A stretch of 60,663 bases of DNA, the filler included, from Basidiobolus ranarum (Eukaryota): the NCBI GenBank assembly GCA_040143965.1. It is 6 parts of 6 records of this genome, joined end to end, with 100 filler letters (N's around TTAATTAATTAA, not from the genome) between each part and the next. Parts side by side here need not be neighbours in the genome. Positions count along the whole stretch, not along the records: positions 40,542 to 50,556 come from JASJQH010000753.1; 5 more parts are not named here. One strand, given 5' to 3'. The translations under genes and the position numbers were made by a program. This document shows positions 3,985 to 46,467 of the stretch, piece by piece; the stretch's first letter is position 1; each line of letters begins with the position of its first letter. The notes below the pieces were generated by a model. That model saw nothing but the letters and a program-made list of their open reading frames with translations. It was not told the origin of the DNA and made no database searches.

Positions 3985-5483
3985 CTACAAAGGGGAAGGG
4001 TTGGGTGATTCCAATGCAAGATCCCCAATTTTGTTGGTTAGTGAGGGGAGATTAAGGGAATTCACTGCACGACCTATAACAATAACCGATGGTGGTATCA
4101 CTTCTTCATTCTTCGCGATAGATTCCATGGTGGAAATAGTAGCGAAAATGCACCTTTCTTCGGGGCAATTTGAATGCTCTACGAATACCACTGGACAATC
4201 CTCGGGATATCCTTTAGCTTGAAGTTCTTCACTCAGGACTCCTACTCGGCCCACAGCCATCAAAATACAGTAGTTCTCATCGGTGAATACACGGGGATAT
4301 CAGGCATTGAACCCTTCTCACCACGACCTGTAGTAATCAGCAGTTGATCGGCATATCCGCGAATAGTAACTGGGACATTTGCTACCATCGGAGCCGATAG
4401 GGCACTAGAAATACCAGGTATAACCTCAGGAGTAAAGCCATGCTCACGGAAGTAGAGTATTTCTTCTCCGCCACGACCAAATAAAAATGGATCTCCTATC
4501 TTTAGACGGACAACTTTTTTCCCCTGGAGAAGCCCCTCGAGAGCCCATTCTTGTAATTCATCTTGCGCTTGGTCGGAGCGACCCTTGGTTTTACGAGCAA
4601 TTCGTACTTCACCCTCGGTCAACTCTAAAATCTGAGGATGTATCAATCGATCAGCCAAAACTAAATCAGCTTCCATCAGTGCCTTCTTGGCACCTATAGT
4701 TAACAAATCTGGATCACCAGGACCTGCTCCAACGAGGGCTATACGGCCTTTAACCGGTTCAGATGTCTCATTTTGTAAGGATTGGCGGAGTGATTTGGGA
4801 TCTAAGACGGTATTGCTTTGGTATCCATCCAGCAATTTCTTCATCTCCTGTTCGTCCATTTGACCCAATTCCTCAAAGGACCAAGCTTCGCATACTTTAC
4901 TCATCCAACCCATACGATAAGCAGCATTATCAGGGTTAGGATCTATTTCACGTACTTTCTTTCTCAAACTCCCAGTTTTCTGGATAGCAGCGCCCACCCC
5001 TTGAGGAAGATTGGAGGCAACATGTTTACGAATTAAGTTTGCTAACTTGGGCCCTTGACCATTGGTTGATATAGCGACTTGTAAAGGTCCATCTCTATGA
5101 GTAGACATGAACCAGAAATCGCATAAAGGAGGAACATCGGCAACATTAACAGGAATGTTGCGTTCTTTGCACAAGTGATAGATTTCTTTGGATCTTACGT
5201 GGTCGTCTATGGCTGTCATAACCATATCTACGTTGTTGAGATCCTGTTCCTCAAAATTGCGGTTAATCCAGCTTATTTGTTTCTGTTCAATACGATATTT
5301 TACTTCAGGATGAAGGCCATCTTCTGGAGTCACCACAGTTACTCTGCCATCGGCTTCTAGGACGTTGAAGATGCGACCAGCTGCTACATTACCACCACCA
5401 ACGATTAATACAGTGCGGTCCTTGACTCTCCAAGCTAATACAAGAGAACCGCCACCTTCAATTTTTGGAAACTCCTCAGACAT
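3985..5483 (-). CDS. MET1: siroheme synthase: Met8-like dehydrogenase/ferrochelatase fused to uroporphyrinogen-III C-methyltransferase (CysG-like order), apparent 1-nt frameshift near 4262-4265
   Basis: GGSLVLAWRVKDRTVLIVGGGNVA (NAD-binding), VNVADVPPLCDF, LVGAGPGDPDLLT, RLKIGDPFLFGRGGEE, VIPGISSA. The C-terminal part continues in ORF 3985-4263 after a frame change. Confidence 0.85.
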
Positions 5484-6273
5484 AGTTGTTTTGAACTACT
5501 TTTTGAAATATTTTGGAACAAGTGACAAGGAAAACTCGTGGATATAAAAGCGGTTGGCCTCGATTTGAAATCAATCCTTTTATGGGAAAGGAATCAATTA
5601 TGGTCCAATTGGTGAGATCGACAATTGGATTCATTTTGTATTTCTAATCTTCTTGAGAATCATCGATAATTTTGAATGAAATTACTATCAGATTGGAACA
5701 CGGAGAAATGATTCATTGCGCATCAATACCTATCGCATCCACTTCATCTCAATTGATTAGTAATGACCCGTTAGAAACGTTAAATACACTGCCTCAAATA
5801 GTATCACTGGTAGATTGATAAAATCTAGTCATTTAATCGATCGTCTGACGCTCTGGCGCTGAATTTAGAGTTTCTTTTTGGATGGCGTATCTCTGGACAA
5901 GGGATTCTTCAGACTCGGATGATTTATAGCAATATGGAATCAACAAAACGTGTGGACATATACAATCCAATGAACATGATTAGTTAAAGTATTTTAATGA
6001 ATCTAAACAATATTCACGAGAATGCCCCAGATGGGGTATTCAAGCAGCTCGTTCTAAATATCTATGTAGATAGAATATCTGGGAACCTGAACAAAGAAAT
6101 ACAAAAGATTTTACAAAATGACCTTGTTACTTTCGATAACACGAACTCTATGAGATTCACATACAAGAAATAAAATCACCGGGAATTGAAAGTTATGTAT
6201 ACAAAATAAGCGCCAATACGAAAGATAAATAAACTGGTTTGTTCCGAAGGTTGTCGGATTCTCGAGACTGCAT

Positions 6274-36169: not shown

Positions 36170-37949
36170 CTAAAGGAAATGAACGGCAGATTTCTTCAAG
36201 CACCATACATCTTGAGTAGATGGCTTGTCATAGCTGTTATTTCCAATCCATGCACCAATGTCAATTCCATCTTGCGGAGCCTCAATTTTCTATTAGCAAA
36301 GCAAATCATAAGTAATAGTCTATCATACACGTGAAATAATGCCTTTACCCAAATGGATCCGTATTTATTGGCCTTTGTGCCCTTGTCATACCAAAGACGG
36401 CTGCCCACACTACCACGAACTAGGAAATCCTGGTGAACTGCAAACAAGCGACCAGCATGCTCTTCTTGTGGTGCAATTTGGCTTCTAGAAGGGTGCGCTT
36501 TGTAGAAATGGCCAAGAGGCTTAAAGCTCACAGCACTCTCGGCTACAGGTCTCCAAATGTTGTATTCATTGCTCTTACCAGAGCCTGCATCATCCCAAAT
36601 TTTATCCCAGTTGGTAATAGCACCTAAAACACCTATTCAAAATTTAAGCCGCGTATTCCATGGAAAGCTTGACCATATATGTGTTATTCGATACCTTTAG
36701 CCCAGGGTTTCTCACGAACAATCAAAACCTTGTACTCAGCATTGCTTTCGGGATAACCGGGGCCAACTCCGTATTGAGCAACCCAATTCCATCCTTCATT
36801 ACCAAGTTCTGGCTTGTACACAGCAAAAGCCTCACTAGCACCTGATCCATCATCATTGAATTGCTTTCTTCCAACAACCCATTGAGCCTCAAGCACCGGA
36901 CCGTCAGGCATTTTAAAGGGTAGCTGGTTTTGCTCGAAATAGGTAAGCAAAGCATCCTTTAGTGCTTGACGGCGATCATCGCCGACAGCCAAATACCATA
37001 TAGGTATCAGTCTGGAAGAGAACTGTTGGTTAATAGTACAACATGGGATGAGTATTGTTCGTACTTACCCATCACGGGTGGCAAAGTCAATTAGTACAGG
37101 ATGAGATTTCACGGTTTTGGCCCATTCCTCAAGGTTTGGGTTGCTATCCAATCCAAATGCAGAAGGATCTCCACCAGAAATGGTGGTTTGGAAACGACTG
37201 TTGGGAAAAAAAATTCAGCCAATAGGATTTGTGTATGAATTAAGAAAGAGCACTTACGAGTTTTGCTTAAATGATTGATATTCACTAGTCTTGGTGACTT
37301 CAGTAGAAGCGGAGCTACCAAACGCACCAAATTGGAAAGTAGCTTCCGCATATATGCCGAACGAGTCTGTATTGCGGCTTTTGAGTTTGTTAGTAATTGC
37401 GGTGTAGACGCATCTTCCACCGACTTTGATGGCAGCAACGTAATGGGTACCATATTTTTCGTAGAGTTTGATAGGATCCAGATTGTCAATATCGTTGCGA
37501 ACATTGTCTTTGAGAAAATCACGGGGATTTCCAGCAGTATCATCCAAACGTAAAATCCATAAGGAAGCATTGTATTGATAACGAGTGTAAGCCTCGAATT
37601 TGCTGTAGGAGTTGCTGGTCTTGAACTCACTCTTGACTGACCCGCCAAAACCTCCGTAGCCTACTTGTAGGTTTACTGACGCACTGAAGTTCTGCACGTA
37701 ATCCTCTACTGTTTCACCACTTGCGACGCTAGAGTCGCGAAGATTTTTATCCAAGTACTGAACAAGTTTGGCTGGAGCAGTATAATTGGAATTGGTCGCA
37801 GAGGCATAGAGAGTTTTCTTCTCTAACTTCTCAAAGTCAAATAGCTGCTCCTCACAAGAATCCACGTTGGCGTATTGTCCAGTAGCTGCTTGATAACCAC
37901 AACCAAGTACATCAAGTCCTGGGATCGGTGCGATATTGTTGCCCATCAT
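36170..37949 (-). CDS. MACPF-domain putative pore-forming protein with C-terminal three-repeat Vps62/DUF946-like (beta-tripod-like) domain; exons 37258-37949, 37069-37197, 36695-37011, 36349-36623, 36170-36289
   Basis: PGLDVLGCGY, MACPF signature YGTHYVAAIKVGGR, ISGGDP, LIPIWYL. Repeats QFNDDGSGA..AVYKP, IWDDAGSGK..IWRP and LWYDKGTKA..SIWK. Four GT-AG introns join the exons in frame. Confidence 0.88.
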
Positions 37950-39448
37950 CTTGCTAGAAAGGATAGCGAAGTTGCTTTTCTTGCTAATGTGGAGATAAAG
38001 GTGGTGGCTGAGATTTTATATTCAAAGTCAGAAAATATTCAAGCCCATTTCTTGGTGTGCCTGTTGTAATTATGCCTCTATTCCTTATGGTATACGAATC
38101 CCCTCATAAACGCTTGTCACTCAATGTCTGAGTCGAACTTGACATATATCCCGATAACAGCCAATTAGATCACTATATGGCTCTATCACACTACTTGTCT
38201 GACGCTGGATTATCTTTAACTATAATGGACAATGCCATACTTCGCGTTGTGAGTTCCTATTGTGGATTGCTGATCGCAATATTAGCATAGGCCTTTCGCT
38301 ATTTTACGTAGAGCTACTATTGATACTAAGTCATGAACATATGCGATCTCCCTGTGTAAATTGTGGCACCCAGGTGAGATTATTACTACATTCCTTACTG
38401 TAGATGAGAAATGATGGTGATATTTCGAGTCCGAGGGATAGGCTGGCGAAATTATTTGAAGATATCGGATTTACTTGTGGCCTTTGTATCAACTATATCA
38501 GTAGGATAGAAACAACTAAGCCACTATAGAGCTCTTTTTCGTAGTGACAATACTCAAGTCATTGGCAGTTGTGAATGTCCAAATATTGACTTTGTCCGAC
38601 ATCTGTATACCTAATTTAGTAGGAAGAGAGCTATTTCATATCCACACAAAGGGATTCTCTCGAAGTAACTTCCGCATCAATGGAGAGTAACAAGTGAATG
38701 ACTTTTGGCTACTGCACGCATATCAATCAAGGGTGTACATACTGTCATCTTTGTTAGGTCTTTGAGTAACAGAATTCTACTCTAGTCACAACTAACTACA
38801 TGCTAGCAATCAGTTTCCAGTCTCCAAGCAAGTCAGTACCTATAATCATTTCGCAGAGATACTAGGAAAGTAATTTTAGAAAGCACTTTCAAAATTATCA
38901 ATGCACTTTACCAGCTTCTTTTCACTTTCACAAAAAACCGGGGATTATCGCATGAAAGAACGTTATCCAGCCTATAAAGATGTGGATCTGCAAGATACCT
39001 GTGACCAGTCATGTCTTGTGCACATTGTTTGTTATTAAAAACCGGTCAATAATAAATATTGCTAGTTTATAACAAATATATTGCAATAAAGAACGGCTTT
39101 ATGGTAGCATATCTGCCAGACATTGGCAGTATCTTACTGGAAAGATTGTAAAAACATATTCCTCATCAGTGACTTTATGTACAACTCTGATCAATAATAA
39201 ATGTAATCCAATTACTAGCCACACAATGCACCGTTAAATATGCTTTGGTAGGAAGTTAAATGGTAGAAGCCAGTATTTCGATCTTTCAGAGTTTTTTTAA
39301 CAAACAACCATTTTATTATATTTCGGAGAGCATGCCTGTTTGAGTTTTATTTAACCAAGCCACATAATTCTTAGGAAGAGTGTAGCATAGAGCTGAGTGT
39401 TTCCGGTATGAGTGCCTCAGCGCTGTAATTGGGAGACTTGAGACTGAT

Positions 39449-44754: not shown

Positions 44755-45450
44755 ATGAAGTACTGTCTTGCCACTAACATAGCTTTAACCCTGTTTTGTC
44801 TGAAGGCAACATTCGGTCACATGGAGATGGTCTATCCGTATCCCAGAGACTCAATATTTAGTCCGTACTATCGCCAGCACAGCCCTGATTGGGATGTTGC
44901 ATCCCCTATTGAGGGAGACAGAGTAAGGACTGATAAGGCCATTCTCGTTTACAAACAACCGCTAATTTATTCATCATTCGAGTAGAGTTACCCATGCCAA
45001 GGCAAATCACGAGGGCCAATCCAGGCTACATTTCGACCGGGCTCATCCATTCCAGTAAGAATCGTTGGGCCCAATAATCATGAAGGGGGCCATTGTCAAT
45101 TTGCGGTAAGCTATGACGGGGTCAACTTTGTAGTAATCAGAGAGGTTCTACACACATGTCTTACGGAATCGGGTACTAATTTTAACATACGTTTACCACG
45201 TAATATTGGCAACGGTGTGGTTGTTTTTGCTTGGTCCTGGATCAACGCCCAGGGTCGTCGTGAATACTATATGAATTGTGCTGATATTGGTATCACCGGT
45301 GGAAAAGCAGGCGGTCGTGTAACTGGACCTCGTCTATTAGTAGCCAATATACCCGGTCACCCCGTCGTGGAAGAGTTTTACTATGACTGGAACGATGATG
45401 GCCAGAGTTTGTTTGATGAACGTGAGATAATATCTATTAAGAGATGGTAG
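44755..45450 (+). CDS. secreted AA11-like lytic polysaccharide monooxygenase-like protein (intron ~44923-44985)
   Basis: Signal peptide followed by His1 (ATFG|HMEMVYPYPR); YPCQG, HEGGHCQFAVSYDG, FAWSWINAQGRREYYMNCADI. Confidence 0.82.
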
Positions 45451-45607: not shown

Positions 45608-45676
45608 ATCAATTTAATACCGGATGAAATCAACTTAATACCAGATGAAATCAACTTAATACCAGATGAAATCAAC
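45608..45676. repeat. 21-nt tandem triplication of the last codons and stop of the CHAP gene
   Basis: ATCAA(T/C)TTAATAC(C)(G/A)GATGAA x3 plus a partial copy. Confidence 0.9.
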
Positions 45677-46467
45677 GCCATTGCCAGGATAAAAGTTGAC
45701 ATAGGTTTTGATATATGGTCCACCATAGCCATTGATGATATAGTTGTAGTCACTGGTGTAAACGCTGCCGTCTGGATTGATTTCCTCTACAACAGCCACA
45801 TGACCATCTGATCCAACTCCTTGATAACCTGGTTGAATGACAATGATTGATGGTACTTTAGGTGTCTTAGAGACCACCCAACCAGCATTAGCAGCCCGTA
45901 TGGCCCAGAAGCGTGCATCTCCCCACCAGGTAGTGTGATGACCGGTAATTTGAGCGTAACGAGCATCAGCCCAATCAGTGCATTGTCCATTATCAAATCT
46001 AAATACCAAGGGATAATTGGCAACATTTAAAGTATTTGTATAGGTAACATTGTTACTATTGTTGTTAGTGTTGTTATTGTTGCTGTTACTGGTGCTGTTA
46101 TTGTTGTTGCTATTGTTGCTGTTATTGTTGTTGCTATTGTTGTTGTTATTACCATTGTTATTAGTGCTTGGGTCAGAACCACTGCAGTAATCAGGATATC
46201 CAGCTCCTGCCGAAACACAGCCGTTACTACAATACTCTGCAGTACTGTAGCTCCAGCTCCAGGCATCCGAGTTACAATTGTACAGAACGTTAGAGTCAAG
46301 TCCTACATAAGGTTTATAGATATTTAGTGAAAGAATCGAGATGTTGACTTTACTGAATACTTACCTAGAGTACTACCGCAGTAGAGTCCATTTCCATTAG
46401 GACAGTTTACACGGGCTTCAGTAACAGATAGAGCGCAGAAGGCTACCAGAATAGCGGAGTAGAGCAT
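45656..46467 (-). CDS. secreted CHAP-domain (Cys/His-dependent) amidase with N-terminal Cys-rich module and Asn-rich linker; exons 46365-46467 and 45656-46302
   Basis: Signal peptide MLYSAILVAFCALSVTEA; CPNGNGLYCGSTL|GLDSNVLYNC...CSNGC...PDYC; poly-Asn linker; GQCTDWA (Cys), WGDARFW, GHVAVVE (His), VYTSDYN. Confidence 0.88.

Follow-up and report, generated by a model that had tools for sequence, protein, structure and literature searches.

A CHAP gene family in the fungus Basidiobolus with Ktedonobacteria kinship and a probable action on bacterial peptidoglycan

Fungi have no peptidoglycan, and the question raised by the locus described here is what an enzyme of the type that cuts this polymer is doing in one of them, and where it came from. 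The locus lies in a stretch of 60,663 nucleotides of Basidiobolus ranarum DNA (assembly GCA_040143965.1; six parts of six records joined end to end), which we call the window, and it consists of a single gene for a protein of 249 residues with a CHAP (peptidase C51) catalytic domain. A preliminary description of the sequence had read this gene as a horizontally acquired, bacterial-type peptidoglycan amidase put to use against bacteria. Combining domain and structure searches, genome scans and phylogenies, we now conclude with high confidence that the CHAP gene is genuine, was acquired by transfer and codes for a secreted product, and we think it likely that this product acts on bacterial peptidoglycan.

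Gene structure and catalytic domain

The catalytic domain carries the assignment to an enzyme class. With the Pfam CHAP model (PF05257), whose cut-off is 26 bits, it scores 60.8 bits at E 1.8e-16 and fills profile positions 7-81 of 81, the full-length protein giving the same result, and its NCBIfam matches, all of them partial, are to staphylococcal amidase-domain proteins and PcsB models. The best sequence match in the Protein Data Bank (PDB) is the hub CHAP domain of phage phi812 (9eum, E 5.7e-10); together with 2lrj, 2k3a and S. aureus SAOUHSC_02979 (5t1q), the matches span E 6e-10 to 9e-8, and Cys142 of the GQCT motif and His202 of GHVA align with their counterparts in 9eum, 2lrj and 2k3a. 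An AlphaFold2 model built on 71 aligned sequences reaches pLDDT 94-98 over the CHAP domain and 83-91 over the six-Cys module that precedes it, and stays under 50 in the linker between the two. Foldseek with the modelled CHAP domain returns 14 PDB matches at E<=0.001, and those listed are all peptidoglycan-hydrolase CHAP domains, with probability 1.00 to 5t1q, 9euf, 9eum, 2lrj, 2k3a, 4olk, 4cgk and 4csh, all of the papain-like alpha+beta fold. Domains of this staphylococcal and phage group (5t1q; 9eum/9euf; 2k3a; LysK CHAPK, 4csh; PcsB, 4cgk) share the fold and the catalytic Cys/His positions with the window protein (25-34% identity, Foldseek E 2e-6 to 9e-4), but they are distant in sequence and have partner domains of their own (SH3b, amidase_2/3, coiled coil).

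The preliminary description had taken CHAP domains of this type to be bacterial or phage wall hydrolases and had named glutathionylspermidine amidase as the case that would speak otherwise. The comparison supports the former: E. coli glutathionylspermidine amidase is matched by Foldseek at E 0.046-0.28 versus about 2e-6 for the staphylococcal and phage CHAP lysins, which are the best solved matches, and a domain scan of the window protein finds no glutathionylspermidine synthetase domain. Among the 36 Basidiobolus paralogs that could be aligned, Asn221 is as invariant as Cys142 and His202, and 30 have Asn at position 219 where the other 6 have Asp; by comparison with Glu134/Asn136 of LysK, we take positions 219 and 221 to supply the third polar residue. 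On sequence and predicted fold, the window CHAP domain is of the bacterial peptidoglycan-hydrolase type.

This domain belongs to an intact, two-exon gene. Exon 1, one junction Gly and exon 2 together encode 249 residues identical to those of the annotated protein K7432_010676 (P0003 in our numbering), and the signal peptide, six-Cys module, Asn linker and intact CHAP domain listed in the preliminary description all appear in this gene model (Table 1). Two observations support splicing of the 62-nt intron: the product equals the annotated protein, and once the intron is removed the six-Cys module has exactly the spacing of intron-free bacterial copies. Signal-peptide and transmembrane calls, here and below, were made with our own hydropathy heuristic, not with SignalP.

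Table 1. Features of the CHAP gene and its 3' flank, in window coordinates
Feature	Position	Strand	Remarks
Whole gene, ATG to stop, 249-aa CHAP protein K7432_010676 (P0003), Basidiobolus ranarum	45656..46467	-	letter-for-letter match of translation to database protein
Exon 1, 103 nt: start codon, signal peptide, module Cys 1-2	46365..46467	-	ATG at 46467..46465
Signal-peptide-like N-terminus MLYSAILVAFCALSVTEA, residues 1-18	46414..46467	-	hydropathy heuristic, cleavage site inferred
Spliceosomal intron, 62 nt, GTAAGT...TAG, phase 1, GC 0.29	46303..46364	-	within the six-Cys module
Exon 2	45656..46302	-	TAA stop at 45658..45656
Six-Cys module, residues 19-78, split by the intron	46172..46413	-	Cys at 22, 30, 44, 59, 63, 74
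Asn-rich low-complexity linker, residues 79-127	46025..46171	-	predicted disordered; encoded by 9-24-nt tandem repeats
CHAP (peptidase C51) catalytic domain, residues 128-249	45659..46024	-	Pfam match is residues 138-221, 45743..45994
Codon of catalytic Cys142, in GQCT	45980..45982	-	Cys in 36/36 Basidiobolus paralogs aligned
Codon of catalytic His202, in GHVAVVE	45800..45802	-	His in 36/36 Basidiobolus paralogs aligned
21-nt tandem repeat, 3.3 copies	45608..45676	.	last codons and stop carried into the 3' flank

The gene also sits in eukaryotic surroundings. Other open reading frames (ORFs) of the window encode eukaryotic domains (FH2 formin, RasGEF, otubain and MACPF), and further ones prolyl oligopeptidase and hybrid histidine-kinase domains. 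The GC content at third codon positions (GC3) of the CHAP-coding part is 0.354, bordering on the low end of the range that eleven neighbouring ORFs span (0.359-0.465), and the homologous coding stretches of Ktedonobacteria have a median of 0.573 (56 loci). Since the base composition of the gene matches that of its host, we take the transfer to be old. Bacterial contamination of the assembly, against which the preliminary description had adduced the intron and the fungal neighbours, is ruled out by the spliceosomal intron, the host-like GC3 and the eukaryotic neighbours on both sides, and is further countered by the CHAP family's occurrence in two separately assembled Basidiobolus species.

The 3' end of the gene has a peculiarity of its own. 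Its tandem repeat, with the unit ATCAACTTAATACCAGATGAA on the + strand at 95% match, encodes the C-terminal ...DFIWY* three times, and this end is translated once.

The Basidiobolus family and its bacterial relatives

The window gene is one of many. Queried with the exon-2 product, a word-indexed protein search gave 47 matches, namely 20 from B. ranarum (K7432, the window's included), 20 from B. meristosporus CBS 931.73 (K493DRAFT) and 7 others, and an additional B. ranarum member (P0050, K7432_012594) brings the named Basidiobolus CHAP proteins to 41. An exhaustive search of representative proteins with the CHAP part alone found 1428 at E<=0.001, 280 at E<=1e-10 and 13 at E<=1e-30. The usual layout of the fungal proteins is a signal peptide, a low-complexity linker and the CHAP domain, and a signal-like hydrophobic start is seen in 31 of the 41. 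The six-Cys module occurs within the family in P0003, P0004, P0005 and P0006 only, plus P0007, whose model begins in mid-module, and the four module-bearing proteins form a subclade (support 99/98) within the fungal CHAP clade. Orthologous pairs are present in both species (P0003 and P0004, for example, are 93% identical over the domain), and from this we conclude that the acquisition, with most of the duplications, came before B. ranarum and B. meristosporus split.

Outside the fungi, the named members of the nearest clusters are Thermogemmatispora tikiterensis WP_112429574.1, several proteins from metagenome-assembled genomes (MAGs) of Ktedonobacteraceae and one from a Chloroflexota bacterium MAG. 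A motif-guided locus scan over one genome per prokaryote species gave 510 relatives, of which the best 76 loci were retained; the best 56 of these 76 are all Chloroflexota, mostly titled Ktedonobacteria, at 41-61% identity to the fungal domain. Those listed include Thermogemmatispora, Ktedonobacter, Ktedonospora, Dictyobacter, Tengunoibacter, Thermosporothrix and Ktedonosporobacter, together with MAGs, some of them titled 'Chloroflexia'. The other 20 of the best 76 loci, at 35-45% identity, comprise 6 Saccharibacteria, 13 Bifidobacteriaceae and 1 Salinicoccus. The likeness to Ktedonobacteria proteins that the preliminary description had put forward is borne out by the locus scan as well as by the trees below.

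Fungal and Ktedonobacteria domains share the motifs GQCT.WA..RY, PSIIV.QPG.QG.G..GHVAVVE.IN.DGSV.TSN.N and PG.GV.F.W, and they differ in what surrounds them. In 55 of 56 Ktedonobacteria ORFs, a transmembrane-like hydrophobic segment of 19 residues lies 68-135 residues ahead of the domain, after a long N-terminal region (about 100-190 residues), and the six-Cys module was not found in these proteins; the window protein has instead a signal peptide, the module, the Asn linker and an intron. We presume from this layout that the Ktedonobacteria proteins are single-pass anchored, outward-facing enzymes, presumably autolysins of these filamentous bacteria. Their annotation goes no further than 'CHAP domain-containing protein' or 'surface antigen', and the literature searched yielded no characterised member.

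The phylogenies place the fungal proteins with this bacterial type. In a FastTree phylogeny of 239 rows (40 Basidiobolus, 76 loci and 123 others, the last being 119 of the best 150 representatives plus four of the word-indexed matches; P0040 and 18 representatives were left out as lacking the Cys motif, and 13 of the 150 entered as Basidiobolus), a branch of support 100 sets off all 40 Basidiobolus rows as one clade, and none of the 119 representatives is placed inside the fungal clade. IQ-TREE, run on 68 hand-picked rows and 143 columns (from the fungal proteins 16 of 41, from the Chloroflexota loci 38 of 56, from the remaining loci 10 of 20, and 4 unnamed proteins), recovers Basidiobolus as monophyletic (98/97) and unites it with the Ktedonobacteria type with support 100/100 and a branch length of 1.88 changes per column, apart from Bifidobacteriaceae, Saccharimonadota and Salinicoccus. 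On these trees we regard the exclusive kinship of the fungal clade and the Ktedonobacteria-type CHAP proteins as firm. IQ-TREE further draws the fungal clade inside the bacterial one, beside the metagenome proteins P0048 and P0043 and then the Dictyobacter group (88/86), a nesting that we do not consider proven and that is weighed in the last section. We read the direction as from bacterium to fungus because the bacterial side is broad (several families, paralogs within genomes, a chromosomal housekeeping context), the fungal side is a single genus, and fungi lack peptidoglycan.

Two of the bacterial relatives deserve description in their own right. Thermogemmatispora tikiterensis carries two CHAP genes of the same type in tandem (L006:753-1805 and L006:2416-3342), adjoining genes for a malate/lactate dehydrogenase and a tetrapyrrole methylase, a context that is chromosomal and not mobile. 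P0048, the nearest non-fungal branch and a long one, is a protein of 367 residues in which an SLT_3 domain (lysozyme-like) and a CHAP domain are joined by a hydrophobic tail at the C-terminus, a layout that we take to resemble the wall hydrolases of conjugative elements. Phage was considered as a vector and rejected, the 7 Staphylococcus phage records reaching at most 45% identity at under 80% coverage; a viral vector fared no better among 325 relatives in IMG/VR, the best of which is 42% identical across most of the domain, any value above this being confined to fragments shorter than 60 residues. No close viral copy of the fungal CHAP was found in the phage collection or among the IMG/VR contigs.

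The six-Cys module

Neither Pfam nor NCBIfam has a model for the six-Cys module that precedes the linker in the window protein, and this is so even for P0222, a protein of 993 residues with 15 tandem copies. A profile built from five copies and run over proteins of 108 residues and longer found 79 proteins of 108-2000 residues, 5 of them from Basidiobolus and 74 bacterial-looking, with 1-15 copies each. By precomputed Pfam assignments, 29 of the 74 bacterial carriers have peptidoglycan-hydrolase domains (overlapping counts of 20 Peptidase_M23, 2 Amidase_2, 6 CHAP, 2 GH25, 1 SLT and 1 SpoIID) and 28 have no Pfam domain; our own scan of 57 of the 79 proteins (56 bacterial and Basidiobolus P0262) agrees, and adds weak matches to NlpC/P60 and M23. 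Named carriers include a Myxococcales N-acetylmuramoyl-L-alanine amidase (MCB9540600.1), a Polyangiaceae M23 peptidase (MCC6554796.1), and proteins of Candidatus Electrothrix, Patescibacteria and Dojkabacteria. Structure searches of the Atlas with the module lead to Myxococcota M23 and Amidase_2 clusters (TM-score 0.76-0.53), and a search on P0264 is again led by Myxococcota, with all matches sub-threshold. The resemblance of the CPxGNGLYCG module to modules on myxobacterial hydrolases, also put forward in the preliminary description, is seen in named proteins and in structure clusters alike.

Set beside the modules of myxobacterial and other bacterial wall hydrolases, MCB9540600.1 and MCC6554796.1 among them, the fungal one is 40-58% identical, with all six Cys and the elements G.G.YCG, LY.C and G..D.C in register. 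The bacterial module is usually in tandem and mostly found on M23 peptidases, whereas the fungal protein has one copy at its N-terminus. As a unit, CPxGNGLYCG...LYxC...CxxGC...GxxDxC is a widespread bacterial tandem repeat (P0222-P0295), found also with DUF4382, NAGPA, Lcl_C and CarboxypepD_reg domains.

How this module came to stand in front of a Ktedonobacteria-type enzyme can be approached from its distribution. A search, made without a positive control, found it at E<=0.001 in none of five named Ktedonobacteria genomes and none of 201 sampled Chloroflexota genomes, and it is this absence from the Chloroflexota genomes searched that leads us to regard the window gene as a chimera that arose within the fungus, most simply by fusion of the module to a CHAP gene that a Basidiobolus ancestor already had. 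Transfer of the whole architecture was considered and rejected, given that the bacterial proteins with both module and CHAP (P0252, P0289, P0292 and P0294) have CHAP domains of other types, not the Ktedonobacteria type by sequence, and a different domain order. Nor do we retain P0262, a B. ranarum protein of 124 residues with the module alone, as a separate family: it is closest to the module of P0005, lies on a contig of 2978 bases and is a probable truncated model of a CHAP paralog.

That bacterial copies accompany wall hydrolases suggests, by analogy, that the module binds the bacterial wall. Its fold offers leads of a weaker kind. A model of a two-copy module protein (pLDDT 78) has no Foldseek match in the PDB at E<=0.001, and VIA-align gives weak similarity to Der p 23 (Z 4.3) and the miniprotein PAFC (6trm, Z 3.9), and to other CBM14-like proteins (Blo t 12, 3.1; Avr4, 2.7 and 2.3; tachycitin, 2.4; the CBM14 of CHIT1, 2.3), all the CBM14 scores being under the level that VIA-align calls meaningful. 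Domain scans of P0003 and of the module proteins give no Pfam CBM_14 match for the module. Bubble protein and PAFC of Ascomycota (PF09227; 1uoy, 6trm) are likewise small disulfide-rich beta modules of similar size; PAFC aligns at 24% identity over 51 residues (Foldseek TM-score 0.50 by target), and the Atlas search with the module returns Ascomycota clusters of 89-93 residues at TM-score 0.70-0.73. In sequence, PF09227 matches one of 29 isolated modules at E 0.0055, below the cut-off, with no match for P0003 at E<=5 and none in 57 whole module proteins at E<=0.05; three module profiles (A3, A4 and A5) run against PDB sequences found nothing for the module, and no bubble protein at E<=10. We treat kinship between the module and the bubble/PAFC miniproteins, like a link to the binding of N-acetylglucosamine polymers, as a lead only. 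A 2026 survey reports bubble proteins from fungi only (PMC13525654).

Proposed function, rival explanations and setting

We posit that the window gene encodes a secreted CHAP-family cysteine amidase or peptidase that cuts bacterial peptidoglycan outside the fungal cell, and consider this probable. In the account of its origin, which the evidence supports well, a Basidiobolus ancestor took up one CHAP gene of the Ktedonobacteria membrane-anchored type before B. ranarum and B. meristosporus separated, a cleavable signal peptide took the place of the cytoplasmic tail and anchor, and the transferred gene adopted the composition of its host, acquired an intron and gave rise to 41 or more named copies across both species. 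In one subclade, to which the window gene belongs, a six-Cys disulfide module was fused ahead of the enzyme through a disordered, Asn-rich linker. Once the enzyme is exported, the module, where present, might dock on a bacterial wall polymer and the flexible linker might give the enzyme reach, so placing Cys142 and His202, polarised by Asp219 and Asn221, to hydrolyse a bond, amide or peptide, in the stem peptide or the cross-bridge; bacteria met in herptile guts, dung and soil could thereby be weakened, lysed or digested. A change from an anchored to a secreted protein is what would be expected of an enzyme turned outward against other organisms, and the family probably serves to attack or digest bacteria. 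Use against bacteria, as the preliminary description had it, is what we too infer.

The rival closest to this proposal shares its enzyme and its substrate: the peptidoglycan of dead or living bacteria might be digested for amino sugars and peptides, as food and not by way of a weapon. Consistent with feeding, the family is large and its members are secreted and mostly simple (signal peptide, linker, enzyme), as in digestive enzyme families, the convergent neighbour of the window gene encodes a protein like secreted lytic polysaccharide monooxygenases (LPMOs), and the genus alternates gut and saprotrophic stages in the account given in parts of PMC9391592. Nothing in the present evidence separates feeding from killing, as lysis yields both, and a module common to the hydrolases of predatory myxobacteria fits attack on intact cells at least equally; we judge a purely nutritional role unlikely, if worth keeping in view. 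Considerably less probable is a change of substrate, by which the CHAP fold would have been reused, still as protease or amidase, on something other than peptidoglycan, such as host proteins, proteins of the fungal wall, or a thiol conjugate as with glutathionylspermidine amidase. CHAP does include non-wall amidases, with glutathionylspermidine amidase among the distant Foldseek matches, the fungus has no peptidoglycan of its own, and the weak fold matches of the module are to chitin-binding domains. Yet the nearest relatives by both sequence and fold are wall hydrolases, with glutathionylspermidine amidase four orders of magnitude worse and the synthetase domain missing; the fungal proteins retain the bacterial clade's motifs at and around the catalytic residues, and in bacteria the module accompanies wall hydrolases.

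Least probable of all, to the point where we give it hardly any credence, is that no transfer into the fungus took place, the gene being either a contaminant or an ancient eukaryotic one that Ktedonobacteria received from fungi. The approximately unbiased (AU) test does permit the fungal clade as sister to the bacterial clade. Against contamination stand the intron, the composition, the flanking genes and the second species discussed above; against a fungal origin stand the findings that Basidiobolus is the only eukaryote named among the 47 word-indexed matches, that the fungal clade of the 239-row tree admits none of the 119 representatives in it, and that the bacterial side takes in at least the first six of the genera listed above, with several paralogs per genome.

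We therefore return to transfer from bacteria followed by secretion against peptidoglycan, and set out the observations that weigh against it. The AU test leaves an arrangement with all 42 bacterial-type rows together and the fungi outside them unrejected (lnL difference 10.33, p 0.149), that group of 42 having been defined after the tree was seen. The horizontal transfer claimed in the preliminary description accordingly stands as far as the exclusive kinship with the Ktedonobacteria type is concerned, and nesting of the fungal clade within that type is drawn without being statistically secured. The motif that guided the locus scan, GHV[AG][VI]VEx[IVF]N, biases its best 76 of 510 relatives towards the Ktedonobacteria type. 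A signal-like start is missing from 10 of the 41 Basidiobolus proteins, some of which are partial or doubtful gene models, and faulty models may account for these starts. Finally, the fold matches of the modelled module are weak and the best of them (Z 4.3) is CBM14-like, and the module might bind chitin instead.

Some comparisons help to place the family. It is already known that peptidoglycan hydrolases of bacterial origin can be kept by organisms without peptidoglycan, and tick Dae amidases are another such domesticated enzyme. GH25 lysozymes (PMC4241558) and archaeal peptidoglycan hydrolases (PMC12352652) are reported as bacterial wall hydrolases domesticated by eukaryotes and archaea. All of these follow the same logic, an intact secreted hydrolase of bacterial descent in a host without peptidoglycan, in different enzyme families, and they are backed by killing assays in the accounts available, whereas the Basidiobolus CHAP proteins are known here from sequence. 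Closer in enzyme type is the oomycete Saprolegnia parasitica, for which passages of PMC3681718 report 7 secreted CHAP genes of proposed bacterial origin, with no donor named there. Like Basidiobolus, it is an osmotroph without peptidoglycan that has a duplicated, secreted CHAP family ascribed to bacteria; it differs in belonging to another eukaryotic lineage, and is set beside Basidiobolus by its description, no Saprolegnia protein being among the named word-indexed matches.

Basidiobolus itself is known, from the relevant parts of PMC7466969, PMC12400927 and the preprint 10.1101/2025.03.31.646025, for bacterial gene acquisition in secondary metabolism. The literature on Basidiobolus with CHAP, peptidoglycan or horizontal gene transfer yielded no mention of the CHAP family, though the supplements of PMC7466969, which lay outside this search, may list its genes. 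A term search of two large surveys of transfer into fungi met neither CHAP nor Basidiobolus data in the portions it covered, and PF05257 and two protein numbers of the family are absent from one survey supplement. The supplement of PMC11291939, in the part searched, has 'Ktedonobacter' 41 times and gives K. racemifer as the bacterium nearest to secreted proteins from two chytrids, Gonapodya prolifera and Rhizoclosmatium globosum, and Ktedonobacteria may on this showing be recurrent donors to early-diverging fungi. Relative to the preliminary description, the 41 named paralogs in two species, the confinement of the module to one subclade and the record of the genus in acquiring bacterial genes are additions; relative to other domesticated hydrolases, what stands out is how large the family is, that its donor lineage is specific and unusual, and the fusion to an undescribed bacterial module.

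Basidiobolus serves as a model of the interplay between fungi and bacteria in reptile and amphibian guts, and if our reading is right, some forty secreted peptidoglycan hydrolases would give that interplay a second arm, an enzymatic one. The family would amount to a set of natural lysins with varied N-terminal parts and a named donor lineage, the filamentous soil Chloroflexota, and a common bacterial repeat module that is in no domain library would be recognised as a mark of wall-lytic enzymes. A bolder version is that Basidiobolus built modular lysins from two unrelated bacterial sources, a Ktedonobacteria-type CHAP enzyme and the six-Cys wall-targeting repeat of myxobacterial and other lytic enzymes, and expanded them to about forty as an antibacterial arsenal in the herptile gut, with the repeat being an undescribed, widespread peptidoglycan-binding family and a bacterial relative of bubble proteins. 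Taken as a whole, we regard this as speculative and rather doubtful.

The remaining observations concern other genes of the window. The convergent neighbour is an ORF at 44986-45450 (+) that ends 205 nt from the CHAP stop codon; it has weak, sub-threshold matches to AA9 (E 0.0062) and LPMO_10 (E 0.0079) and is probably part of a gene for a secreted copper monooxygenase-like protein. The MACPF (perforin-like) ORF lies at 37254-38015 (-), with E 3e-5, some 8 kb from the CHAP gene in window coordinates. A single ORF at 4260-5495 (-) carries NAD_binding_7, Sirohm_synth_M/C and TP_methylase in series, which we take to be the layout of a fused, CysG-like siroheme synthase typical of bacteria, and it may be another bacterial-type gene.

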